64,000 nt of DNA from Escherichia phage AV117. Below are positions 8,390 through 64,000 of the stretch, piece by piece (position 1 is the stretch's first letter; each line of letters opens with the position of its first letter). The position numbers and the translations under genes are program-made. The notes beneath the pieces were generated by a model that was not told the DNA's origin, searched no databases, and was given only the letters and a program-made list of their open reading frames with translations. The stretch lies in sequence record OR352947.1; one strand, written 5' to 3'.

Positions 8390-9523
<1,134 letters not shown>

Positions 9524-9540
9524 TCAGTTAGTTTTTTTAA

Positions 9541-9570
9541 ATTGTACCACAATCCTTGTGGCATGTAAAC
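9541..9570 (-). promoter_or_regulatory. early-type promoter-like element (-35 GTTTAC, -10 TACAAT) with CCACAA..TTGTGG inverted repeat
   Basis: gtaaac 9565-9570 upstream of rnlA. Confidence 0.4.
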
Positions 9571-9980
9571 TACTTTTTCTTATGTTGGATATTCCAAGGC
9601 GGGTTGAACTTTTTGATAAAAAGCGGTTCTTCAAGGTCCATTGTTGCGATGGTCATTGAACCAAGTTCATTGGTGACTGAAAGGTCAAAACATTGGCGGG
9701 CCCAGAATTCAACCTTTTTGCCTTGCATTAAGGCATCCAAAATCATAAGTGATTTTCTTGAATCTGAAGTCTGGTCTTTTCGATTTATGGCTGTTCGATA
9801 ATAGTTAATGCGTTTCTTTAAATTCTTGGTTTTACCAATATACACAAGCTCGTCATCTATAGCAATAGCGTATATGACATTTTTCTTATTAGGGACGTCA
9901 ACTGTTTTAATTGTTGCATCTTCTAATAGCTCCAATTCTGTATATTTAATAAAGGAATATTCGGCGGCAATATCTTTCAT
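9570..9980 (-). CDS. denA: endonuclease II (GIY-YIG-like nicking endonuclease for cytosine DNA)
   Basis: 136 aa; GIY-YIG-like segment (VIYAIAIDDELVYIGKTKNLKKRINYY); T4 position next to nrdB. Confidence 0.8.
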   Translation of the reverse strand: MKDIAAEYSFIKYTELELLEDATIKTVDVPNKKNVIYAIAIDDELVYIGKTKNLKKRINYYRTAINRKDQTSDSRKSLMILDALMQGKKVEFWARQCFDLSVTNELGSMTIATMDLEEPLFIKKFNPPWNIQHKKK

Positions 9981-9988
9981 AATAAAGT

Positions 9989-10002
9989 GGGACCGAAGTC
10001 CC
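9989..10002 (-). terminator. UUCG-tetraloop hairpin (GGGAC-UUCG-GUCCC) between nrdB and denA
   Basis: Perfect 5-bp stem with UUCG loop. Confidence 0.5.
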
Positions 10003-10006
10003 GTCC

Positions 10007-11185
10007 TTAGAAATATTTTTTGTATGAATTGATTACATTTTGGTCTACATCATTATCAATTTGTGCGACAAGATAAGAACTGATTTCAACTTCCTGAGGA
10101 GCTGATTGAACTAAATCAGAGTTCAGATATTCACGAATCCAAGGATACGGATGCTTGGTCGGAGCATCAGTGATTGGACATGGCAAACCGCACTGTTTCA
10201 TACGAGACACAGTCAAGTAATCAACAAAAGCACACATACTCTGCGTATTGATACCTGGACATGTACCATCTTTAAAGAGGTGTGCAGCCCATTCCTTCTC
10301 TTGTCTATTTACTTCCATAAAAATGTCAACTGCTTCTTGTTCACATTCTTTAGCAATTTGAACCCACTCATCACCATCAGTACCAGATTGAAGTTGACGG
10401 ATAATGTACTGAGTACCCTTAAGGTGGAGTTGTTCGTCACGAGCAATGAACTTCATAATCTTTGCATTACCTTCCATAATTTCCATATTTTTATGGAAGT
10501 TGAAAGTACATGCAAATGATACGTAAAAACGAATAGCTTCTAAGGCATTGATAACATGCAAACAGAGATAAAGAGACTTCATTAAATCACGCTTAGCAGC
10601 GGCTTCTTGCTTAATAGCACGTTCTAATTGAAGGTCTGCATTAATTGACGCTTTGGCTAGTTCCGTGAATTCTTTCTGGTTTTCCCAATGACGAGTCTTG
10701 ACTAGAACATCATCGTAATATTTACCTATTGATTCAGCTCGTTTCATGATTGCTTCGTCTAATACAATTTCATCAAATACCTTAGATGGGTCTGTATAAA
10801 GATTTCGCATAATATGTGTATACGAACGAGAGTGAATAGTTTCACTGAATGTCCATGTTGCAACCCACGTATCTAATGAAGGGTCAGAAATCAGTGCCAT
10901 AAGTACCGCAGATGGGGCCCTGCCTTGGATAGAATCTAATAATGATTGATACTTAAGATTGTTTGTAAAGATGTCCTGTTGGAACTGAGGAAGCTTATTG
11001 AACTGCGCAGAGTCCAACATCAAGTTTACCTCTTCTGGGCGCCAAAAAAATGATAATTGCTTTTCGGTCAAATCTTCAAAAACTTTATGGCGTTGAATAT
11101 CATAACGCGCAATACCAAGTCCAGAACCAAAGAACATCGGTTCATTCAAAACATCGACTTGTTGTGTGTTAAAAACTGTACTCAT
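10007..11185 (-). CDS. nrdB: ribonucleotide reductase small subunit (class Ia), uninterrupted
   Basis: 392 aa continuous ORF with di-iron/tyrosyl radical protein features; no intron-like interruption. Confidence 0.9.
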   Translation of the reverse strand: MSTVFNTQQVDVLNEPMFFGSGLGIARYDIQRHKVFEDLTEKQLSFFWRPEEVNLMLDSAQFNKLPQFQQDIFTNNLKYQSLLDSIQGRAPSAVLMALISDPSLDTWVATWTFSETIHSRSYTHIMRNLYTDPSKVFDEIVLDEAIMKRAESIGKYYDDVLVKTRHWENQKEFTELAKASINADLQLERAIKQEAAAKRDLMKSLYLCLHVINALEAIRFYVSFACTFNFHKNMEIMEGNAKIMKFIARDEQLHLKGTQYIIRQLQSGTDGDEWVQIAKECEQEAVDIFMEVNRQEKEWAAHLFKDGTCPGINTQSMCAFVDYLTVSRMKQCGLPCPITDAPTKHPYPWIREYLNSDLVQSAPQEVEISSYLVAQIDNDVDQNVINSYKKYF

Positions 11186-38308: not shown

Positions 38309-40522
38309 TTATTTGGCCGCTTCCACGGCCTTCATGAATTTAACGATTTGAGCGACCTGTTCTTTGGAAAGAGTACCACGTCGTCCCATGTATTCCGACA
38401 CAATATGATAATTGGTTTCGAATTCAATAACCATTTTATCATCATTATCGTAAGCATTATCTTTAAGCTTATCGAAAATTTTAGCACACAGTTCTAACTT
38501 CTTATTCAGATCTCTGTTAGTAGCACCTGAGAATCGATTCCATCCCCATCGATTATTTACTGTTGAAAGTTTTGCAAAATCTTTACTGATTTCTTTGTTC
38601 TTAGAGCTAAAATACTTACTAAGGAAGTTAAGCTCTTCATTACGAGTAATATGATTCAAATAAGGCTGTGCTCTACGACTTGGTGATACATACTCATCAT
38701 AATCTACTTTATCGATTAGCATAATATAGTCATTAATTGATTTTTCGAACAAGCATTCTACTTCACCAAGTTTACGAACTTTCTTAGCAATCTGTGGACG
38801 GACTACAGTGAACTCTTTAATACCTGACAAATCAGCAATACGGGTCAAGAAATTGGAGTCATAGTTCAACCAACCTTTATCTGCGTCAAGACATTCAGCA
38901 TTAGAACGATTACGAACTATAGCATAACCTTGGATTTCATCAGCTTCACTCGCCGGAATAAAGAGATCTTCTGATACCCAAACATCGTTTTCATTCTTAA
39001 AGAACCGATGAGCACTTGGGGATTTAGGACGAGGCCCATTAGAACGAGTCTTGACTTCAATCCATGGCTTAACGATTTGTAAAAGCTCTGAAGTCTTGTA
39101 CATGTTAATGTTGTCGCCATCAAAGATAACTTTAAGGCGTTCCAGAAGTTTCATTGCATCTTCGTCTGTAGGGTCAACGAATAGTACGCTTTTACCAAAA
39201 CCGCGTGGAACTTTACCTGTTAATTTAACCTCGTCTTTAGACATTTCAATTGAATTAAGAGCTCGCATTAATGGAACACGTCCCTTAACGTCGTCAATAA
39301 CAATTTCAACATTTTTAATGTTAATGCCAATCAGACTGTTAATTGAAATAGTTGACGATGAGCTACCACTTTCACGAATACGACGAAGACGAGGGTCTTC
39401 AATGATATCGTATACGACGCCTAGATTACACCATTCAGGTCCCATTTTAAAACGTTTGTACAACTCAGAATAAGTTAGTTGTTCTTTAGAATATTTCAGT
39501 GATTCAATATTAGAACCAGCTTTTTCCATGTATTTACGAGCTGTATAGCCAAGAGAATCGATTTCACGGAATACATGACGTGGATATTCACAATCAATCC
39601 ATTTCTTAGAATCTTCAGCAAATAATTTTGCATCGATTTCTGCAACACGTTTATGGATATTTGCTACTGTACGTTTATCAAATGACAATGCTTCACGAGA
39701 CGGGGCTACATCTAGTTCACCCATAGGGAATTTAATATAAGCTGTAGTGCATCGCGTCATCATCCATGTTTGTTCTTTAATAACACTTCCAATTGGATAT
39801 ACAATACCACCATAAACAGCCATGATATTACCACGTTCACCCCATGGAGCTTCCTTGGCCAAATATACATCATCGAATTCCGGGAAGTATTTGATATCTT
39901 TAACACCACGAACTTCTGCAATATCGCCGAGAGGACGCATAACATAAGCAATTTCGGATGCGAACTTTTCAAAATCTTCTGGGTTAACAGGCACAACTAC
40001 TTCAACGCCGGTCCGGTCATCAGGGCCCATCTTATCTACGAAGGTTGGCTTAATTTGTGGGCCTGTGTCATCTTGGTAGATTACGTAACCACGAACTTCA
40101 CCATTGTGATAAGACGTAAGGTTAAACGTATCAGTATATGCTAATGGAGCTTTAGAACCGAGTCCGAATCCACCGATGAAATCGTTACTCGATGTTTTAG
40201 TTGAAGCAAAATATGAGTTATAGATTCCTGGCTCTTCATCATTACCTCGAATGGTGAAATCACTCATACCAGGACCAAAGTCTCGAACTACAAAACGTGG
40301 GTCTAAACGACCTGGAGCCTGAACAATAAACTTATCAGTGCAACCATTAAGAATTTGTCCATCGATACAGTTTGTGATTAATTCACGTACACAAGCCAAT
40401 TCTTTGTTTGTATAAAGGTCATTAGACAAAATCTTATAAACTTTACTATTGCCTTGAATAGTAAATGCTGTGCTCTTACCGCCTGAACCAATAATTGTTT
40501 CTTTAGCCGTTTCAATAATCAT
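38309..40522 (-). CDS. rIIA: rIIA protein
   Basis: 737 aa; N-terminal region matches recalled T4 rIIA (MII.T.KETI.G.G.KS.AF.I....KV.KILS.DLYTNK). Confidence 0.9.
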   Translation of the reverse strand: MIIETAKETIIGSGGKSTAFTIQGNSKVYKILSNDLYTNKELACVRELITNCIDGQILNGCTDKFIVQAPGRLDPRFVVRDFGPGMSDFTIRGNDEEPGIYNSYFASTKTSSNDFIGGFGLGSKAPLAYTDTFNLTSYHNGEVRGYVIYQDDTGPQIKPTFVDKMGPDDRTGVEVVVPVNPEDFEKFASEIAYVMRPLGDIAEVRGVKDIKYFPEFDDVYLAKEAPWGERGNIMAVYGGIVYPIGSVIKEQTWMMTRCTTAYIKFPMGELDVAPSREALSFDKRTVANIHKRVAEIDAKLFAEDSKKWIDCEYPRHVFREIDSLGYTARKYMEKAGSNIESLKYSKEQLTYSELYKRFKMGPEWCNLGVVYDIIEDPRLRRIRESGSSSSTISINSLIGINIKNVEIVIDDVKGRVPLMRALNSIEMSKDEVKLTGKVPRGFGKSVLFVDPTDEDAMKLLERLKVIFDGDNINMYKTSELLQIVKPWIEVKTRSNGPRPKSPSAHRFFKNENDVWVSEDLFIPASEADEIQGYAIVRNRSNAECLDADKGWLNYDSNFLTRIADLSGIKEFTVVRPQIAKKVRKLGEVECLFEKSINDYIMLIDKVDYDEYVSPSRRAQPYLNHITRNEELNFLSKYFSSKNKEISKDFAKLSTVNNRWGWNRFSGATNRDLNKKLELCAKIFDKLKDNAYDNDDKMVIEFETNYHIVSEYMGRRGTLSKEQVAQIVKFMKAVEAAK

Positions 40523-40534
40523 ATTTTTCTCTCA

Positions 40535-40735
40535 TCACAAGTTACGTTTAAAAATTTCTGCTACTTCAAGAAGTTCTTCTTTAGTAGCTGTATCGGTTTG
40601 TATTTTATATCGAATTTCCTTAAAGCGTTCTTTAAAGGCTTCGGCTGATTCGATATCAAAAAATCTTTGGATAAGCCGGAATTCCCGGAGCACTGCTTTA
40701 TCAAAAAGTTCCAAGTCCACGTTATATGTTCTCAT
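40535..40735 (-). CDS. hypothetical protein (66 aa), rIIA.1-like position
   Basis: ORF track; synteny. Confidence 0.5.
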   Translation of the reverse strand: MRTYNVDLELFDKAVLREFRLIQRFFDIESAEAFKERFKEIRYKIQTDTATKEELLEVAEIFKRNL

Positions 40736-40827
40736 AATATTCTCTTCAGTAGATTCCTAGGGCACTATTACTAAAGACCATATAATCTATCATCTTATGT
40801 GTAATAGTGCCTCAGGCTATTCAGGAT

Positions 40828-41928
40828 TTACGCTGCGAAGATTTTATCCCACATCGCAACAACTGCATCTCGATTATACTTCTTCCATACTGCTTCAGCA
40901 CGTTTAACTCGAGCTTCGTATGTGTCAGTGAATTCTAATACAGCTTTTGTGTAAAGCGCAACTACTTCTTTCTTAGGAGTAGAGGAATCAATTTCTACAC
41001 GCACAGTATCTGGGTCGTATTCGAATGTCGCATGAGGATAATCCTTAAAAACTAACTGGATTACAGGGACACCTTTAGAGATAGCTTCAATAGAACTATT
41101 CTCTACTGTACCCGTGTCAGGACACGTATTAATAAGTGCTTTAGCTGTTTTAAGACGTTCCATGATTTCACTGTGTGGAGCATCAATAATAACAGGATAT
41201 TTAGCTGGTGGTGCCCATTTGCTTGGACAGTATCCTGCGCCATTTTCGCCTAGTGCTTTAATCGCTTCAAGAGCAACATCAGTACGACGCATTTTAGTGT
41301 CATAACGTTGTGCACTAATAATCAGATCAGTCGCCGGAAGAACTTCAGGTTTCTCATTCAAACAAATAACCGGATAATCTTCGGCTTCAAACAACGGATT
41401 TGCTCGCCAATAATCATAATCAATTTTGTCAGTCAGACCTGAAGTCATATAACAATATTTGCGTTCAAATTCACGGAAGGCTTTAGTAGGAGCATAACTC
41501 TTACCACCATTCTTATGAATTTGAATAGTCTGGTCCCAAATTTGAACAATGCCACGAGATACCGGTTCAAATGGTGTTGCCATAAAATTCTTATGAACTT
41601 TAGAGAGACCTGCGTCTTTAATTGCCTGAACGGTTAGTTTAGTCGGTTCCATAGTAACAACAAAATCGTATTCATGGATGCCGGCTAGTTCAACAATCTT
41701 ACGAGCCATAGTATAACTCATACCTAGACTGAATTTAGTCAGATGACCAACAGGATGGTGTGTAACTTTCCAGTCACCAAACGTGTCATTGTCAAAGCCG
41801 ATATAATCAATATCAGCACCGATGGACACAAGATATTTCAACACATTTAAATGTACTGCTTCAAGACCACCTTGTACACGGTCAGGATTAAATGGGACTG
41901 CACGAGATGGGATAAACATAACTTTCAT
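40828..41928 (-). CDS. GT-B fold glycosyltransferase-like protein (GT4-like E-x7-E region), candidate DNA or other sugar transferase
   Basis: 366 aa; segment DTGTVENSSIEAISKGVPVI resembles GT4 donor-binding motif; sits between rIIA.1 and gene 39. Confidence 0.6.
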   Translation of the reverse strand: MKVMFIPSRAVPFNPDRVQGGLEAVHLNVLKYLVSIGADIDYIGFDNDTFGDWKVTHHPVGHLTKFSLGMSYTMARKIVELAGIHEYDFVVTMEPTKLTVQAIKDAGLSKVHKNFMATPFEPVSRGIVQIWDQTIQIHKNGGKSYAPTKAFREFERKYCYMTSGLTDKIDYDYWRANPLFEAEDYPVICLNEKPEVLPATDLIISAQRYDTKMRRTDVALEAIKALGENGAGYCPSKWAPPAKYPVIIDAPHSEIMERLKTAKALINTCPDTGTVENSSIEAISKGVPVIQLVFKDYPHATFEYDPDTVRVEIDSSTPKKEVVALYTKAVLEFTDTYEARVKRAEAVWKKYNRDAVVAMWDKIFAA

Positions 41929-41954: not shown

Positions 41955-41972
41955 AAGCTCCCGAAGGAGCTT
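41955..41972 (-). terminator. UUCG-tetraloop hairpin (AAGCUCC-UUCG-GGAGCUU) overlapping gene 39 stop
   Basis: Perfect 7-bp stem. Confidence 0.5.
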
Positions 41973-43788
41973 AGGACATCCATTCTTTACGAAGTTCTGA
42001 ATCATCACCCAACAACATTTCAAAGAGTTCTTTCCAATTTTCAGGAAGTTTAACTACGTCGTACACAGGGTTTTGAATCATTTCACGATATTCTGACTTT
42101 TCAAGTGAGCCCAATCCCTTGATGTATCGAATACTATGCTTAGGCAGTGTATCTTTAGCTTCTTCATACTCAGCTACAGTATAAAACCATTTTTGAGTTT
42201 TGCCAATTTGTGCAATAATTACAGGCGTTTTAACAAAGCGAATACGTCCTTGTTCAAACAATTCAGGCCAATTACTAAAGAAAGCAAGCAAAGCCGGATA
42301 AATACTTCCAAGACCGTCATGATCGGCATCGGTCATAATTGCAATATTACGATAGTTCGTATTCTCTGCCTTTTCACCAAGAATAAGACCTGTGATAGCA
42401 CAGATATCAAAGAGCTCTTTGTTCTTCATCATATCAGCATATGACATACCCCAGCTATTCATCACCTTACCACGTAATGGGAATCCACCGTGTAGTTCAC
42501 GGTCACGAACATCAATGAGATAACCAATTGCCGAATCACCTTCTGTTAAAAACAATGTCGTATCCGCATCTTTACCGCATTGGTTAGCTTTAATATGCTT
42601 ATGAACCTTAGCTTTAGTTGCCTTTTTAGCTGCTTTAGTTTCTGCAGCCTTTTCTGCTGCCAATTTACGAGCTAATGCTGCTTCAACAATAGGCATAATC
42701 AAGGCTTCGTTTTTAAGAAGTGCCTGAGCAATTTTCTTAGCATCTAATTGGATATGATTACGAATATCACCATACGTTGACGTTAAACGTTCTTTAGTCT
42801 GAGAATCAAAACGCATGTTGCTCATGTCTCTAATAAACATCAACATTGTGAGACATTCTTTAACACGAGCTTTAGTGACTTCAATACCCTTATATTTCTT
42901 TTTAATACCCGGCAAAAGATGTTCGCAGATATCATCCATTACACATTCAACATGATGACCACCATTTTTAGTATGGATGTTATTCACATAAGTTAAATGA
43001 CGGAAGCCGTCTGGTGATGTTGTGAATGCTATAGAGACTTTATCATTTTCTTGAATGATGTTATCTTCACCAAATTGTTTAGCAAATCGTTTAAAATTAC
43101 CATCAACCTTTTTACCATTAAATGTGAACTTGATATCAGGATAAACGACTGCCAATGTTTGAAGCCGGTCTAAAGTAATATCTAAATAAATTTGAGATAA
43201 ATTATGTTCTTCAAATGAAGAGAAATCAGGAGTGAAGATTACTTTAGTGCCTTTACCTTTAGATTTCTTAGAAGACCATGATTTGTTTTCCATCCCGTTT
43301 GAACAGTTAACAGTGATTTCATTTTCGCCATCTGACGTTATGCCTGTAAACAACGTAGAGAAGATATTAGTTAAACTACTCCCGACGCCGTTCATACCAC
43401 CGGTCTTACGTTCAGAGTCATCGCCAAAGTTACCACCAGCCTTTGGAATAGTCCAGGCTGCTACAGGCCCAGGAATTTGTTCACCTGTTTGGTCGGTAAC
43501 TAAACCTTGAGGAATACCACGTCCGTTATCTTCCACCGAAACTTGATTATTTTTAATTTGCACATCAATTTTATTTGCAAACTTAAATGATGTACGAATA
43601 GCTTCATCAACCGAGTTGTCAATAATCTCATCGATTAATTTAACCAGACCAGGAACATATTCAACTTGTTGATATTTACCAAACAAAAAACGTTCGTGGG
43701 CTTCTTTGGCCGAAGAACCAATATACATGCCACTTCGTTTCTTAATATGTTCTACATCTGACAATACCTTAATTTCATTTTTAATCAT
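41971..43788 (-). CDS. 39: DNA topoisomerase II large (ATPase) subunit, single uninterrupted ORF (equivalent to T4 gp39 + gp60)
   Basis: 605 aa; GHKL ATPase N-terminus and Toprim region (LFLTEGDSA) in one ORF. Confidence 0.95.
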   Translation of the reverse strand: MIKNEIKVLSDVEHIKKRSGMYIGSSAKEAHERFLFGKYQQVEYVPGLVKLIDEIIDNSVDEAIRTSFKFANKIDVQIKNNQVSVEDNGRGIPQGLVTDQTGEQIPGPVAAWTIPKAGGNFGDDSERKTGGMNGVGSSLTNIFSTLFTGITSDGENEITVNCSNGMENKSWSSKKSKGKGTKVIFTPDFSSFEEHNLSQIYLDITLDRLQTLAVVYPDIKFTFNGKKVDGNFKRFAKQFGEDNIIQENDKVSIAFTTSPDGFRHLTYVNNIHTKNGGHHVECVMDDICEHLLPGIKKKYKGIEVTKARVKECLTMLMFIRDMSNMRFDSQTKERLTSTYGDIRNHIQLDAKKIAQALLKNEALIMPIVEAALARKLAAEKAAETKAAKKATKAKVHKHIKANQCGKDADTTLFLTEGDSAIGYLIDVRDRELHGGFPLRGKVMNSWGMSYADMMKNKELFDICAITGLILGEKAENTNYRNIAIMTDADHDGLGSIYPALLAFFSNWPELFEQGRIRFVKTPVIIAQIGKTQKWFYTVAEYEEAKDTLPKHSIRYIKGLGSLEKSEYREMIQNPVYDVVKLPENWKELFEMLLGDDSELRKEWMS

Positions 43789-43839
43789 GTTGTCTCCTCG
43801 TTATGAAGGTATTCTATCATCCTAAATCTAAAGCAAAAA

Positions 43840-43851
43840 GGGCCGAAGCCC
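43840..43851 (-). terminator. UUCG-tetraloop hairpin (GGGC-UUCG-GCCC) immediately after upstream gene stop
   Basis: 4-bp GC stem with UUCG loop. Confidence 0.4.
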
Positions 43852-53577: not shown

Positions 53578-54099
53578 TCAGTAACCATTATCCTGGCGTT
53601 CAAAGTTGTGTTGGTTTTTCAAGTAGTAAAGTTTAAAGATTTCTTCAGCGGAAAGACCAAGACCTTGGAACATATTCAGAACAAAGTGCAGAATATCAAT
53701 CATCTCGAATTTAATTTCGAGCTGGTCTTCAGGAGACAGTTCATCGATACGACGATTTCGATATTCAGCATGTTGAGCTTTCCAAGGCTTCCATACAGAG
53801 CTAGCGGCTTTTTCACCATTGCTCATACCACCGAGTGAAGTCAACAGTTCACGGAATTCATCATCAATATAATCTTTCTGATTACGCAGCCAATCAACAA
53901 CATCGCCAGCAGTGGCCAATTCGTCAGGATGTTTGTTATGTTCAGGCTTATCATTTGCCAGACGAATCTGTAAAGATTTCTGCATATCAAGCATTACCTG
54001 CAGAGGGTCTTTATCTTCATGAATCAGAGCATTAAAATAAGCTTCTTCTGCTTTATCAACACCAGAAATAAGTTGTGAACATTCGTTAAAGTGCGCCAT
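53578..54099 (-). CDS. 56: dCTP pyrophosphatase (gp56-like, MazG-type)
   Basis: Synteny next to soc; start set to ATG with AGGA RBS (MAHFNE...). Confidence 0.6.
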   Translation of the reverse strand: MAHFNECSQLISGVDKAEEAYFNALIHEDKDPLQVMLDMQKSLQIRLANDKPEHNKHPDELATAGDVVDWLRNQKDYIDDEFRELLTSLGGMSNGEKAASSVWKPWKAQHAEYRNRRIDELSPEDQLEIKFEMIDILHFVLNMFQGLGLSAEEIFKLYYLKNQHNFERQDNGY

Positions 54100-60569: not shown

Positions 60570-60932
60570 TTAAAAGAATTTAAATTTTTTCTTGGTCCGT
60601 TCATTAAAAGCTTGTTGTACTTGCATTGTAACACATTTTTCAACATGCGGTGCAAGTTCTGCTTTTCTGTCCTGGTCAAGAACTGCAAAGTCCATTACGA
60701 TTTTACCATCAACCCAGTCTAGTTTTGTAATATAGACTATATGATGAGAACCATCTTCAAGTGTAATCAGAATCTCTTGAATGACATTTTCCATTGCTGA
60801 ACGGATAATTTTAAGAGATTCATTAAACACTCGTTCTTTGCGAATGTCTTCCCCTTCCGAAGAAGGGGATTCATCAACGATTTCTAGATTTAAATCATCG
60901 AGATTATTCATCGAAATCTTCCATTTCGTCAA
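60570..60932 (-). CDS. 40: gp40-like head assembly accessory protein
   Basis: 120 aa; synteny between uvsX and 41. Confidence 0.6.
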   Translation of the reverse strand: MTKWKISMNNLDDLNLEIVDESPSSEGEDIRKERVFNESLKIIRSAMENVIQEILITLEDGSHHIVYITKLDWVDGKIVMDFAVLDQDRKAELAPHVEKCVTMQVQQAFNERTKKKFKFF

Positions 60933-62076
60933 GGTCGTTTTCTATATCTGCTGCAGACGGAGCATCAGAAGTTTTAACCGGAACTTTAGTTGTGGCTTTG
61001 CAATTAATAAGGTCATTAACAGCGTCATCAACTTCTTTAATAGAAGAGATAGCACCTAGTTTATATTTAGTTTCAATTGCATCTCGGAAAGGTTTGTGTT
61101 TAAACAAAGGTCCCCAGAATTCTACACAATCAGTAGCTTTAGCACGCCATGATTTTTCTTCACGAATCATTTCGCCAGTTTCTTCGTCAAGGAATTCACG
61201 AGCATACCAACCAGCTTTAGGCTTAACTACAAAACCAATTTCAGTTGCCATTTCTAACAAGCCACTGAATGGGTCGATACCACCATCAAAATTAACAGTG
61301 ATTGGGAAAGTAGATTTTTCTTTAACGGTGCGAGATTTTTCTGCTTTCAACGTGAAGTCATAACCGGTCAATTCTGTACCTTCTTTAACCTGACGTTTAG
61401 AGATAAAAAATACCGTGTTGGCAGAATAAAGAATACCTGTACCACCACCCATAATCTCTTTAGGATACAATCCGCCGATTTCCATTGCTGTATGGTTGAT
61501 TGCAACACATGGAATATCTTTAATAGTCAGATAAGGAGTCACAATGCGGAACAGAGATTTAAGTGCCTTAGCACGAGACATATCACCTACAACTTTCTCG
61601 TTCAATGCATCTTCAGTTTCTTTCTTAGATGCAGTATTACCGATTGAATCGATAAAGATAATAACTTTATCACCGCGTTCAATCGCGTCAAGCTGATTAG
61701 TCATATCAACTTTAAGTTGTTCGACAGATTGAATCGGAGTATGAACTACACGGTCTAAATCAACACCCATTGAACGAAAATAAGATTCTGAAGCACCAAA
61801 TTCCGAATCATAGAACAAACAAATTGCATCTTTATATTTCTTCATATATGCTGCAACCATGGTCAGCCCAAACAACGTTTTAAAGTGTTTAGAAGGAGCA
61901 GCAAAAATAGTTAAGCCTGATTGCAACCCGGCATTCAGTGCACCACCTAATGCAATATTCAACATCGGAATACGAGTAGGGACTTCATCGCGATTATTAA
62001 ACAACTTAGACTTAGTCAAGTCTGCAGTCATTTTAGAAGTAGAAGCTTTAATCAGACGAGATTTTAAATCAGACAT
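60904..62076 (-). CDS. uvsX: UvsX recombinase (RecA-like)
   Basis: 390 aa; matches recalled T4 UvsX (MSDLKSRLIKASTSK...). Confidence 0.95.
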   Translation of the reverse strand: MSDLKSRLIKASTSKMTADLTKSKLFNNRDEVPTRIPMLNIALGGALNAGLQSGLTIFAAPSKHFKTLFGLTMVAAYMKKYKDAICLFYDSEFGASESYFRSMGVDLDRVVHTPIQSVEQLKVDMTNQLDAIERGDKVIIFIDSIGNTASKKETEDALNEKVVGDMSRAKALKSLFRIVTPYLTIKDIPCVAINHTAMEIGGLYPKEIMGGGTGILYSANTVFFISKRQVKEGTELTGYDFTLKAEKSRTVKEKSTFPITVNFDGGIDPFSGLLEMATEIGFVVKPKAGWYAREFLDEETGEMIREEKSWRAKATDCVEFWGPLFKHKPFRDAIETKYKLGAISSIKEVDDAVNDLINCKATTKVPVKTSDAPSAADIENDLDEMEDFDE

Positions 62077-62175: not shown

Positions 62176-62724
62176 TTAACGAGCCCATTTGATAATTTCT
62201 GTAATCAAATTATTACGTTCGCTTGCATTAAATCCTATAACTTTGTTAGCACCATCATGATTAAGTAATTGATACGTTTGGATTTTGTTATGAATTGCAA
62301 ACTCTTCAAAATATGAAATGACTGTATTAAAACCGAATGAAGACAAAGTAATAAGGTCGTCTTCAAAACTTTCAGTCATTTCGTTACGTGTTAAAATAAT
62401 TGTGAACACATCATGGTTTTGGCAAAGACGAACATAATCCTGTTCATAAACGTCAAGAACCGAGTCCACATCTTGTCGAATACGTCCATAAACCCAGTTA
62501 CTAATATATCCACGGTCTAACAGATAAATCTTAGTAGGGTCTAAATAATTCAACATCGTTTCGAAACAGCCAACTTCATTTCGAGACTTAACATCGAAAC
62601 GTCCATCAACTGTTCGTTTAGGGAAATCAATCTTTACATATCTTTCACTAATTTCCATTATGTCATTAATGAAAGTTGTTTTACCAGCATTATCCGGGCC
62701 ATCTACTAAAATAATTTTAGCCAT
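62176..62724 (-). CDS. P-loop nucleoside/nucleotide kinase-like protein (thymidylate-kinase-like fold signature)
   Basis: 182 aa; Walker A VDGPDNAGKTT and DRGYISNWVYG resembling the DRY..S..AYQ lid region of dNMP kinases. Confidence 0.6.
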   Translation of the reverse strand: MAKIILVDGPDNAGKTTFINDIMEISERYVKIDFPKRTVDGRFDVKSRNEVGCFETMLNYLDPTKIYLLDRGYISNWVYGRIRQDVDSVLDVYEQDYVRLCQNHDVFTIILTRNEMTESFEDDLITLSSFGFNTVISYFEEFAIHNKIQTYQLLNHDGANKVIGFNASERNNLITEIIKWAR

Positions 62725-62725
62725 T

Positions 62726-63625
62726 TTATTCCTCGATTACGACATCTTCATATTTAGGTATATTATACGGCGAAGAAATTAAAGCATTAAAGTAGATGAA
62801 CTCGCCAAGACCTGGATGGAATACTTCTTCAGGATTTTCGAAGTATTGAATCTTCGGACGTCCTTTAAGAATTTGATAGTACTCAGTTTTAGTTGGTTTA
62901 AAAATTCGAATCAGCGCTTCTTCAGGATACTTATTTCTGTCGAAGCTATTATTTGGATCGGTTATATAAAGCGGTTGACCTAATTGAATTGCACATTCAA
63001 CCACTTGTTCAAAACGATAGCACGGGTCACTAATTCGAAATGGATGAAAAATACCATCTAGATGAATAGGAGCCAAATCACCTACAAGACGCTGCATGAT
63101 GGAAGGACGTATAACTTTCTGCGTTACGATAATCTTATTACCATCTGCACCTGCGTTAACCAGCACTTCTTTTTGACGTTCATTCAACACAGTAGTTTGA
63201 AGTGAACGATTAACAGACAACATGTCGGTTTTTAAGAATTCGTCAATATAAAAACGTGGTTTATTAGGGTCTGCAGTGATATTGAAATTGAATTCTACGT
63301 CAAAAGTGCCGTCATATCCAGTGATATCTGTGATTAGAAAATCACAATCATAATAATCAATTAATGAATCAACCACAAATTCATTTTCAGACCAGAAATA
63401 TTTACGAGTGTTATATGCGTTATCTTTATACCATAATGGAACAAACTTAAATTCTGGGAAAAGTCGTTCACATTCTTTAATATCAGATGCATTACGTGGA
63501 TATGTAATCACATCACCCGGATTAGCACGGTGCAAATGAAGTTGGAAGTTGCCATCCTTAAGGATAGCATACTGTCCAGTTTCATAAGACCGCATACTCA
63601 AGATAGGTACGCGGAAAATAGCCAT
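62726..63625 (-). CDS. hypothetical protein (299 aa), no recognisable motif
   Basis: ORF track; abuts kinase-like ORF (stop 62726, next start 62724). Confidence 0.6.
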   Translation of the reverse strand: MAIFRVPILSMRSYETGQYAILKDGNFQLHLHRANPGDVITYPRNASDIKECERLFPEFKFVPLWYKDNAYNTRKYFWSENEFVVDSLIDYYDCDFLITDITGYDGTFDVEFNFNITADPNKPRFYIDEFLKTDMLSVNRSLQTTVLNERQKEVLVNAGADGNKIIVTQKVIRPSIMQRLVGDLAPIHLDGIFHPFRISDPCYRFEQVVECAIQLGQPLYITDPNNSFDRNKYPEEALIRIFKPTKTEYYQILKGRPKIQYFENPEEVFHPGLGEFIYFNALISSPYNIPKYEDVVIEE

Positions 63626-64000
63626 TAGTCAAGGAATCCTTTAACATAATCAAAATCACGTTCAAACACATGGGCACTTACCATGGTATGAGTATAATCA
63701 CCAACTTCTACACCACATTCTTTAGCGATATAATGAAGTAATTTTCCTTGGAGATAAAAATCCAACTGCATAACAACAGCACAGTTCTGAGAACGCATAT
63801 GGCAGTGGGTATAAAGCTTACCATCACGAATATAATAAGTCACTGAGTCAGTACATGGATATTCAAGTGTTTCGTCCGAATCAAGCAAAGCCTGATCTGA
63901 ACTTTCAAGAATTTGAAACACAACTCTTCGAGAGTTAGGTTTTTCTTTAAGTTCTTTTAGAAGAGTTGGTAACTGGGCCGCAATGCGAGGACCGTAGAAA
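63625..64000 (-). CDS. thymidylate-synthase-family pyrimidine hydroxymethylase (gene 42-like), C-terminal part; 5' end outside window
   Basis: Open frame continues past the GTG reported by ORF track to the window edge; motifs P.SRR, catalytic PCTD, YYIRD, MRSQN align with the TS/dCMP-hydroxymethylase fold. Confidence 0.6.
   Translation of the reverse strand, partial: FYGPRIAAQLPTLLKELKEKPNSRRVVFQILESSDQALLDSDETLEYPCTDSVTYYIRDGKLYTHCHMRSQNCAVVMQLDFYLQGKLLHYIAKECGVEVGDYTHTMVSAHVFERDFDYVKGFLD

Follow-up and report, generated by a model that had tools for sequence, protein, structure and literature searches.

The RB69 gp3 orthologue of Escherichia phage AV117, a putative DNA arabinosyltransferase of the GT-B fold

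Gene content and order at the locus

The analyzed window, a stretch of 64,000 nt from Escherichia phage AV117 (OR352947.1), is DNA of a Mosigvirus, that is, an RB69-like phage. Its features of interest are collected in Table 1. An ORF of exactly 366 aa, as claimed in the earlier note, lies between rIIA.1 and the gene for the topoisomerase large subunit. It starts with ATG, and a Shine-Dalgarno-like AAGG is located approximately 9 nt 5' of this codon. Compared with the RB69 gene, 22 codons differ synonymously and 3 non-synonymously, and residues 1–365 of the 366 match PHROG 8302, an unnamed family (E = 4.5e-222). Together with the solved structure of a near-identical protein (see below), the PHROG match and the codon differences identify the ORF as a real gene.

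The slot named in the earlier note is borne out by the neighboring genes and by the gene order of T4, in which the corresponding interval holds genes 60, 60.1 and mobA. The same gene was found at the same position in the RB69-like genomes RB69, HX01 and HY126, and the order rIIA.1, transferase, topoisomerase large subunit is identical in these phages and in the AV117 window. The CUUCGG hairpin upstream of the transferase gene resembles a terminator, its fold by itself being without significance (z = -0.8). A promoter scan revealed sites no commoner than in shuffled sequence; hence, we make no claim of a dedicated promoter.

Table 1. Positions of the genes and features discussed, numbered from the first nucleotide of the window
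Feature	Position	Strand	Remarks
rIIA, beyond rIIA.1	38309..40522		
rIIA.1, 66 aa, downstream neighbor	40535..40735	-	98.5% identity to RB69p002; PHROG 1683 match
366-aa ORF, putative GT-B DNA arabinosyltransferase	40828..41928	-	orthologue of RB69 ORF003c/gp3 (HY126 glycosyltransferase)
Putative nucleotide-sugar binding loop and helix, residues 271–290	41059..41118	-	invariant E276, E281
CUUCGG-tetraloop hairpin, 7-bp stem, terminator-like match	41955..41972	-	overlaps gene 39 stop codon; 26 nt 5' of transferase start codon
Topoisomerase II large subunit, gp39 and gp60 fused, 605 aa, upstream neighbor	41971..43788	-	matches both the gp39 and gp60 PHROG families: PHROG 543, and PHROG 7229 over residues 452–605; 96% identity to RB69 gp39
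gp56 dCTPase, supplies dCMP to modification pathway	53581..54099	-	96.5% identity to RB69p028; pathway dCTPase in PMC13326640 Table 1
Thymidylate-kinase-like nucleotide kinase, 182 aa, RB69 gp45 homologue	62176..62724	-	97.8% identity to RB69p045; PHROG 761 (thymidylate kinase)
First (base-proximal) putative arabinosyltransferase, 299 aa, RB69 gp46:47 / DLP3 gp79 homologue	62726..63625	-	role proposed in PMC13326640
5-hydroxy-dCMP synthase, thymidylate-synthase family, C-terminal part, RB69 gp48 homologue	63625..64000	-	cut by window end

Identity, fold and conserved residues of the 366-aa protein

The AV117 protein is identical to RB69p003 (NP_861693.1, ORF003c/gp3) at 363 of 366 positions (99.2%), both proteins being 366 aa long; T56N, T327I and A365T are the only differences. 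Over its full length it shares 361 of 366 residues with the protein of PDB entries 9IQZ and 9IR0, from which it differs by five substitutions (Y160H, G164A, A231V, S315F, A365T). According to their titles, 9IQZ (apo) is the "phage HY126 glycosyltransferase" and 9IR0 the same protein with UDP; both were released on 2025-07-16. ORF003c was first proposed as a DNA arabinosyltransferase by Thomas et al. 2018 (PMC6024577), who assigned it to the last step in the formation of arabinosyl-cytosine. More recently RB69p003 was named "beta-arabinosyltransferase 2", its role being proposed rather than confirmed (Lee et al., NAR 2026; PMC13326640). The gene is thus already known: it is the orthologue of RB69 ORF003c/gp3, which has been a candidate arabinosyltransferase since 2018, and a crystal structure exists for the HY126 orthologue. 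Since it encodes an already described RB69-like enzyme, the earlier finding was right in outline, but not new. Database records name the gene differently. The orthologue is annotated as "DNA alpha-glucosyltransferase" in the HX01 RefSeq record, as a GDP-mannose-dependent phosphatidylinositol mannosyltransferase in OR062945.1 and as "putative hmC-arabinosyltransferase" in the Bas47 record.

An AlphaFold2 model of the protein had a mean pLDDT of 61.7, with residues 109–188 below 50, and was used for fold-level matching alone. Strands and helices alternate in both halves of the model, the confidence being low in residues 109–188. A Foldseek search of the PDB with the model yielded 223 matches at E ≤ 0.001, and the best 50 of the 223 are all glycosyltransferases. 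9IR0 and 9IQZ ranked first, followed by the GT4-type GT-B enzymes WaaG, PimA and BshA (E ~1e-9, probability 1.0). Fold recognition therefore agrees with the assignment made in the earlier note: although the model is of low confidence, its Foldseek matches and the solved orthologue 9IQZ place the protein in the two-Rossmann-domain GT-B class with a GT4-like fold. At the sequence level, no Pfam family matched at E ≤ 10, including Glycos_transf_1 (PF00534) and Glyco_trans_4, nor did any NCBIfam model. Distant family members gave sub-threshold traces only (PF20706, E = 0.0028; PF13692, E = 0.013). Sequence searches of the PDB, with the single sequence and then with a family profile, returned the HY126 entry only and no sequence bridge to other glycosyltransferases. 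The gp3 family is very small. A search of 5.8 billion proteins gave 5 clusters, and HMMER, run exhaustively over 1.84 billion representatives, found 11 family proteins. These were too few for a deep alignment, which accounts for the poor AlphaFold2 model.

The donor-binding segment quoted in the earlier note, DTGTVENSSIEAISKGVPVI, was located in the C-terminal half of the protein (Table 1). Ten family members at 35–43% identity share G273, T274, E276, S279, E281, A282, I283, G286, P288 and V289 as invariant residues. Glu-281 has been aligned to Glu-311 of T4 alpha-glucosyltransferase (a-gt), the ribose-binding Glu of GT-B enzymes (Thomas 2018; PMC6024577). When the EX7E motif is read off the sequence alone, E281 is invariant and the residue 8 positions upstream is the invariant G273, with D271 and E276 as the closest acidic positions. 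Akin to the bacterial GT4 enzymes WaaG (2iv7), PimA (2gej/4nc9) and BshA (3mbo), the phage protein has the two-Rossmann GT-B fold; by this reading of the sequence it would keep the C-terminal-domain Glu (E281) and have Gly where the first EX7E Glu is expected. Identity to these enzymes is only 10–15%, and a sugar carried by duplex DNA is proposed as acceptor instead of a lipid or small molecule.

The dissimilarity to T4 a-gt and to T4 beta-glucosyltransferase (b-gt) stated in the earlier note holds at the level of sequence and of shallow profiles. Hhalign comparison of the shallow family profile with either enzyme gave a probability of 0.2% each, and tblastn with both enzymes against the whole 64,000-nt window gave nothing with E < 1. 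HHpred had linked ORF003c to 1XV5 (E = 1.9e-24), a remote similarity only, at approximately 10% identity (Thomas 2018; PMC6024577). The T4 proteins are GT-B enzymes that depend on a UDP-sugar and act after replication on a modified cytosine of the phage DNA, a mode of action proposed for gp3 as well. However, they use glucose and the hydroxymethyl group of hmC as acceptor, whereas for gp3 arabinofuranose and a sugar on 5-hydroxycytosine are proposed, and their genomic slot is a different one.

The modification cluster and the order of the two transferases

The earlier note had taken the uvsX–42 interval to lack a transferase. This does not hold, as the interval contains the 182-aa kinase-like gene and a 299-aa glycosyltransferase homologue of the gp46:47 type. 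The product of the latter can be aligned along its whole length with RB69p047 and p046 together, is encoded by a single intact ORF in AV117 and shows 45.9% identity to DLP3 gp79; its gene adjoins the "42" homologue, which is the slot of b-gt. The acceptor hmC assumed in the earlier note has likewise to be replaced. The "42" homologue (PF00303, E = 3.2e-16) is 98.4% identical to RB69p048 and 27.6% identical to T4 gp42. It reads ...HMRSQN..., with the Asn codon of RSQN at 63784..63786 as an Asp-to-Asn signature. E. coli ThyA has RSCD where the phage synthase has RSQN. The corresponding substitution, D169N, is the signature of 5-hydroxy-dCMP synthase (PMC13326640). In RB69 the genes for UDP-arabinose synthesis (isomerase, bifunctional kinase/uridylyltransferase, HAD phosphatase) are gp51–55, beyond the point that corresponds to the window end, and such genes are found in the relatives RB69 and DLP3.

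The sugar in RB69 DNA is arabinose, not glucose (PMC6024577), and the bases are mono- and di-arabinosylated 5-hydroxy-dC, not hmC derivatives (PMC13326640). The modification has been defined as beta-D-Araf-(1->3)-alpha-D-Araf-5-hydroxy-dC, the linkage by NMR (PMC13326640). The related Mosigviruses NP, Bas46 and Bas47 are likewise di-arabinosylated. A pathway that uses arabinose (PMC6024577, PMC13326640) fits the non-glucose specificity which the earlier note had held possible. That gp3 might instead be an alpha-glucosyltransferase acting on hmC in DNA, or a mannosyltransferase acting on lipid or LPS, is what the HX01 and OR062945.1 annotations imply, and PimA is among the Foldseek matches; yet neither the sugar nor the base of RB69 DNA agrees with glucosylated hmC, the protein bears no similarity to a-gt or b-gt in the above comparisons, and its orthologue was crystallized with UDP rather than GDP. 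Homologues of gp3, moreover, lie inside DNA-arabinosylation clusters, and DNA is the substrate of two such homologues. We regard such an activity as highly improbable.

The two transferases differ in their distribution. The first transferase was found in 348 phage records from many genera, including Dhakavirus and phages of Klebsiella, Enterobacter, Serratia, Yersinia, Proteus and Shewanella. The gp3 family was found in 211 records, with one copy in Mosigvirus-type coliphages and two places per record in Acinetobacter phages, where both genes lie inside the arabinosylation cluster beside the kinase and the first transferase. One of the 211 records is named Tegunavirus and is known by name alone. 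Many genera have the full arabinosylation cluster, including the gp46:47-type transferase, without a gp3 homologue, and it is the gp46:47-type gene, not gp3, that adjoins the 5-hydroxy-dCMP synthase gene in every lineage examined. Thanatos DNA is reported to be mono-arabinosylated, with just one transferase, a gp46:47-type enzyme, in this phage (PMC13326640); in the gp3-family search of phage records Thanatos gave no match. TH1_065 of Thanatos (378 aa) comes after the kinase-like gene, at the place taken by a gp3-family gene in the Acinetobacter phages. It was considered as a hidden gp3 homologue and rejected, as BLASTP revealed no similarity to gp3.

In vitro data are available for the Acinetobacter phage DLP3. 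Its gp77 and gp76 are homologous to the AV117 protein over the full length, at 42.6% and 40.5% identity, respectively, and share with it the invariant residues G20-G21, Q207-R208, R214 and T274-E276...E281. Together, gp76 and gp77 add arabinose from UDP-Araf to RB69 DNA, each being inactive alone, and they do not act on 5hoC DNA without sugars (PMC13326640). The inactivity on sugar-free 5hoC DNA, the persistence of the cluster without gp3 and the mono-arabinosylated DNA of Thanatos all speak against gp3 as the base-proximal enzyme that would join the first sugar straight to the modified cytosine, as does the position of the gp46:47-type gene next to the synthase gene. The 2018 assignment of ORF003c to the final arabinosyl-cytosine step (PMC6024577) and the Bas47 annotation would fit this order of events. 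On the evidence as a whole gp3 is probably not base-proximal, and we rate this reading as unlikely. The suggestion of the earlier note that the 366-aa protein is the best candidate for the DNA sugar transferase of the phage stands in so far as a role in the DNA-sugar pathway is concerned. However, gp3 is not the sole such transferase, the gene of the conserved first one lying in the window, too.

Whether gp3 acts alone is a separate matter. Since the DLP3 homologues are active only as a pair, solo action of the single-copy gp3 is an assumption. An enzyme that needs a second protein, either the first transferase or further copies of itself in an obligate oligomer, would be in keeping with the DLP3 pair and with the chain labelled H in 9IQZ, which means that the crystal may hold several protein copies. 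Yet Mosigviruses with one gp3-family gene still make the disaccharide, gp3 and the first transferase share no sequence similarity, and their genes lie approximately 21 kb apart in the window. The DLP3 system also differs in itself: its two paralogues (57.5% mutual identity) are in the cluster, require each other and give a trisaccharide, whereas AV117 carries a single copy at a distance of 21 kb from the cluster, and the product in its relatives is a disaccharide. A strict dependence of gp3 on a complex appears improbable.

Proposed role and implications for phage DNA modification

Taken together, the AV117 protein is the Mosigvirus gp3 orthologue and most likely acts as a soluble two-domain GT-B enzyme that adds the second D-Araf from UDP-Araf to phage DNA. 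That gp3 itself performs this addition, with the linkage given below and on its own, we infer from the combined data. In the proposed pathway, the thymidylate-synthase homologue of the phage would produce 5-hydroxy-dCMP, and 5-hydroxy-dC would be built into DNA in place of cytosine. The first transferase would then place alpha-D-arabinofuranose on the 5-hydroxyl. With the UDP-sugar bound in the cleft that its two Rossmann-like domains enclose, gp3 would move a second D-arabinofuranose from UDP-arabinofuranose to O3 of the first sugar, giving beta-D-Araf-(1->3)-alpha-D-Araf-5-hydroxy-dC in double-stranded phage DNA.

The number of gp3-family copies runs parallel to the number of arabinoses, albeit in three chemotypes only: none and one sugar in Thanatos, one and two in RB69, two and three in DLP3. 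The family might accordingly be a dedicated "glycan-extending" class that reads a DNA-attached sugar, with 0, 1 or 2 copies setting a chain of 1, 2 or 3 arabinoses, and it may also form a beta linkage by means of a GT4-like scaffold devoid of the first EX7E Glu. We put this forward as a tentative idea, more doubtful than the role of gp3 proposed above. If the beta linkage is indeed made on such a scaffold, the catalytic arrangement would be unlike that of classical retaining GT4 enzymes. Published papers have partly addressed both the glycan-extending class and the loss of EX7E.

The value of these results is corrective, concerning a known gene, misleading annotations and an overlooked first transferase in the b-gt slot. 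The database entries "DNA alpha-glucosyltransferase", "phosphatidylinositol mannosyltransferase" and "hypothetical protein" are all misleading. Arabinosylated 5-hydroxycytosine is described as the means by which RB69-like phages evade restriction enzymes and DNA-targeting CRISPR, and this protection appears to be adjusted by sugar-chain length (PMC13326640; Mahler 2025, as cited in PMC13216743 and PMC12923530). A step-by-step assignment of the transferases matters for phage engineering, phage therapy and the sequencing of such genomes. In the phage itself, the second sugar would make the glycan layer of the major groove thicker and widen protection against host nucleases.

The transferase gene and its surroundings

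The 366-codon ORF that an earlier note had picked from the raw sequence as a DNA sugar transferase was found at exactly the position assigned to it, and an AAGG ribosome-binding motif lies 5' of its start codon. PHROG 8302, the family of RB69 gp3 (ORF003c, RB69p003, NP_861693.1), matched the transferase over its full length (E = 4.5e-222), and the codon differences from RB69 comprise 22 synonymous and only 3 non-synonymous changes. Judged by this match and by the pattern of codon changes, the ORF is clearly a genuine gene. The topoisomerase ORF next to it spans the gp39 and gp60 families, indicating that two T4 genes are fused in the window. Since T4 carries genes 60, 60.1 and mobA between rIIA.1 and 39, the description of the slot as the gene 60/mobA position was also correct.

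Upstream of the transferase start lies a C(UUCG)G tetraloop hairpin, a type typical of T4-type intercistronic regions. A second, long hairpin lies between the transferase gene and rIIA.1; its core stem is 11 bp (GGCACUAUUAC / GUAAUAGUGCC), and its folding energy of -28.6 kcal/mol corresponds to z = -4.4 relative to shuffled sequence. RB69, HX01 and HY126 keep it with one varying pair, for which the window has A-U, HY126 has G.U and RB69 a mismatched A.C. It may act in RNA processing or stability, or as a terminator. In phage HX01, an HNH homing-endonuclease gene (9385..10068) lies directly upstream of gene 39, with an 8-nt overlap at the start of the latter; the window is without this endonuclease gene and has a gap of 63 nt (~43789..43851) between gene 39 and a 141-aa ORF upstream.

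Positions of the transferase gene, its neighbours and the uvsX-42 interval in the window
Feature	Position	Strand	Remark
rIIA	38309..40522	-	downstream of the transferase gene, beyond rIIA.1
rIIA.1	40535..40735	-	downstream of the transferase gene
Intergenic hairpin	40756..40816	-
Transferase ORF	40828..41928	-	ATG start, 366 codons
Segment DTGTVENSSIEAISKGVPVI	residues 271-290 of the transferase	-	quoted in the earlier note
C(UUCG)G tetraloop hairpin (CUUCGG loop)	41955..41972	-	overlaps gene 39 stop codon; 26 nt before transferase start
Topoisomerase II large subunit, 605 aa	41971..43788	-	upstream neighbour; PHROG gp39 and gp60 families both covered
uvsX	60904..62076
Kinase-like gene, 182 aa	62176..62724	-
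First (putative) arabinosyltransferase, 299 aa	62726..63625	-	single intact ORF; aligns end to end with RB69p047 and p046
Thymidylate-synthase homologue	63625..64000	-	C-terminal 124 codons; cut by window end

Relatives and fold of the transferase

By megablast, the window belongs to the genus Mosigvirus, the RB69-like T-even phages. Over a 2-kb region it shares 99.0% identity with HX01 and 95-99% with ~145 further records; over a 24-kb stretch it shares 96-98% with ST0, AV112 and others. At the protein level, 363 of 366 residues are shared with RB69p003, 364/366 with HX01 gp192, 361/366 with the chain of PDB entries 9iqz and 9ir0, and 359/366 with the HY126 GenBank protein. The window protein is essentially an allele within the group of RB69 gp3 and the HY126 glycosyltransferase. 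The two PDB entries, released on 2025-07-16, are titled 'phage HY126 glycosyltransferase' and 'phage HY126 glycosyltransferase with UDP', so that a UDP complex of an orthologue exists. At residues 288-289 the HY126 GenBank protein (PP658200.1) reads Leu-Gly, probably a genome-record error, whereas the HY126 protein that was crystallised has Pro-Val, and both residues are invariant throughout the family. Shigella phage JK45 (MK962757.1, 1501..3104), classed as Tequatrovirus despite its Mosigvirus transferase gene, carries a complete copy followed by a 411-nt ORF repeating its 3' part, which reflects either partial duplication in tandem or faulty assembly. Public naming of the gene is inconsistent: besides the commonest, 'hypothetical protein', it is called 'DNA alpha-glucosyltransferase', 'GDP-mannose-dependent alpha-(1-2)-phosphatidylinositol mannosyltransferase' and 'putative hmC-arabinosyltransferase'.

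Pfam (E<=10) and NCBIfam scans of the transferase returned no model matches. The gp3 family is tiny: 5.8 billion proteins yielded 5 clusters, and exhaustive HMMER scanning of 1.84 billion yielded 11 representatives. Because the family alignment is so shallow, confidence in the AlphaFold2 model is low, with a mean pLDDT of 61.7 and values below 50 at residues 109-188. Fold recognition, a check proposed in the earlier note, was run against the PDB with this low-confidence model as Foldseek query. The top PDB matches were 9ir0 and 9iqz (E~4e-53), followed by the GT4-type GT-B enzymes WaaG, PimA, BshA and tetrahydrobiopterin glucosyltransferases (E~1e-9, probability 1.0), bearing out the GT-B-like fold. 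This outcome reproduces the published comparisons of RB69 gp3 with PimA (2gej) and sucrose-phosphate synthase (6kih) (PMC13326640) and is in line with what Thomas et al. 2018 (PMC6024577) obtained from HHpred and Phyre2. The protein shares the GT-B fold with GT4 but falls outside it by Pfam and CAZy-type sequence models; it likewise lies outside the T4 alpha- and beta-glucosyltransferase families (a-gt, b-gt), whose kind of task it would nevertheless share.

In an alignment of ten family members (35-43% identity), the invariant residues are G20-G21 (N-terminal Gly loop), E94, R125, Q207-R208, D210, R214, N267-T268-C269, G273-T274, E276, S279, E281 and a block from H299 to P306. E281 is the counterpart of the GT-B ribose-binding Glu (PMC6024577). 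Eight residues before it, at the GT4 site of the first EX7E Glu, the family appears from its sequences to have an invariant Gly.

The uvsX-42 interval

The order in T4 is uvsX, segA, b-gt, 42, which puts the 299-aa first transferase of the window in the b-gt position. The earlier note had taken this interval to be without a transferase and the gp3-type protein to be the only one; both premises were wrong, while its statement that b-gt is absent held, as tblastn found no b-gt or a-gt homologue anywhere in the 64-kb window. For the first transferase, Pfam and NCBIfam gave no matches and a PDB sequence search found no solved relative. The RB69 reference record divides it into p046 and p047, a split published as a sequencing error, and the intact window ORF agrees with that remark. 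The adjoining synthase fragment shares only 27.6% identity with T4 gp42 and contains ...HMRSQN..., with RSQN at a site where E. coli ThyA has RSCD. RSQN is the Asp169-to-Asn signature described for 5-hydroxy-dCMP synthases (PMC13326640).

Chemistry, distribution and the likely reaction

Thomas et al. 2018 (PMC6024577) reported that the RB69 DNA sugar is arabinose, not glucose, and picked out ORF003c (366 residues, GT-B fold) as the probable arabinosyltransferase. A revised chemistry came from Lee et al. (NAR 2026, PMC13326640), in which a flavin-dependent thymidylate-synthase homologue supplies the base, 5-hydroxycytosine, as 5-hydroxy-dCMP. Cytosines of RB69 carry one or two arabinoses, and the disaccharide form is beta-D-Araf-(1->3)-alpha-D-Araf-5-hydroxy-dC (Araf, arabinofuranose). 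The hmC acceptor of the earlier note is thereby replaced, whereas its non-glucose DNA sugar transferase deserves credit. The glucosyl- or mannosyltransferase function given in some record annotations is extremely improbable.

In the work of Lee et al., gp46:47 of the polymerase-uvsX cluster is the proposed first, alpha-linking enzyme and gp3 is named 'beta-arabinosyltransferase 2'. Direct biochemistry concerns only Acinetobacter phage DLP3, whose gp76 and gp77 (40.5% and 42.6% full-length identity to the window protein) jointly, neither singly, transferred a third arabinose from UDP-arabinofuranose onto RB69 DNA (PMC13326640); homologues thus act on already arabinosylated DNA. A comparable need for a partner protein is unlikely for the window transferase. 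It is equally unlikely that the latter is itself the first-sugar enzyme. The gp3-type protein and the first transferase show no similarity.

A tblastn survey of 50,697 phage records found the first transferase in 348: Mosigvirus, Dhakavirus (JS98, Bp7), Klebsiella, Enterobacter, Edwardsiella, Yersinia, Pectobacterium, Serratia, Proteus and Acinetobacter phages and Shewanella Thanatos-1. The gp3 family occurred in 211, namely ~155 of Mosigvirus type (>=95% identity, one place each), 55 from Acinetobacter (~42% identity, two places each) and one 'Tegunavirus'-named record (<60% identity), which would be the exception to an otherwise Mosigvirus and Acinetobacter distribution. Yersinia TG1-type phages among the first-transferase matches had no gp3 homologue. 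In DLP1 and DLP3, both gp3-family genes directly adjoin the kinase, first-transferase, synthase and UDP-arabinose genes. The reported sugar count follows gp3-family copy number: Thanatos has one sugar, its sole reported arabinosyltransferase being of gp46:47 type (PMC13326640); one copy goes with two sugars in RB69, NP, Bas46 and Bas47 (the last two reported as doubly arabinosylated), and two copies go with three sugars in DLP3. Deletion of an arabinosyltransferase named 'Aat' reportedly sensitises Bas46 to a plasmid-borne defence.

The best-supported reading is that the transferase would be a UDP-arabinofuranose-dependent GT-B enzyme acting on replicated phage DNA. The first transferase would make alpha-arabinofuranosyl-5-hydroxycytosine, and the gp3-type enzyme, probably acting alone, would then add a second arabinofuranose to that sugar in beta-(1->3) linkage. 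None of this is new: the 2018 study already proposed the protein as the DNA arabinosyltransferase, the NAR paper of 2026 moved it to the second step, and with the HY126 orthologue already crystallised and its entries released in 2025, the gene is one already known.
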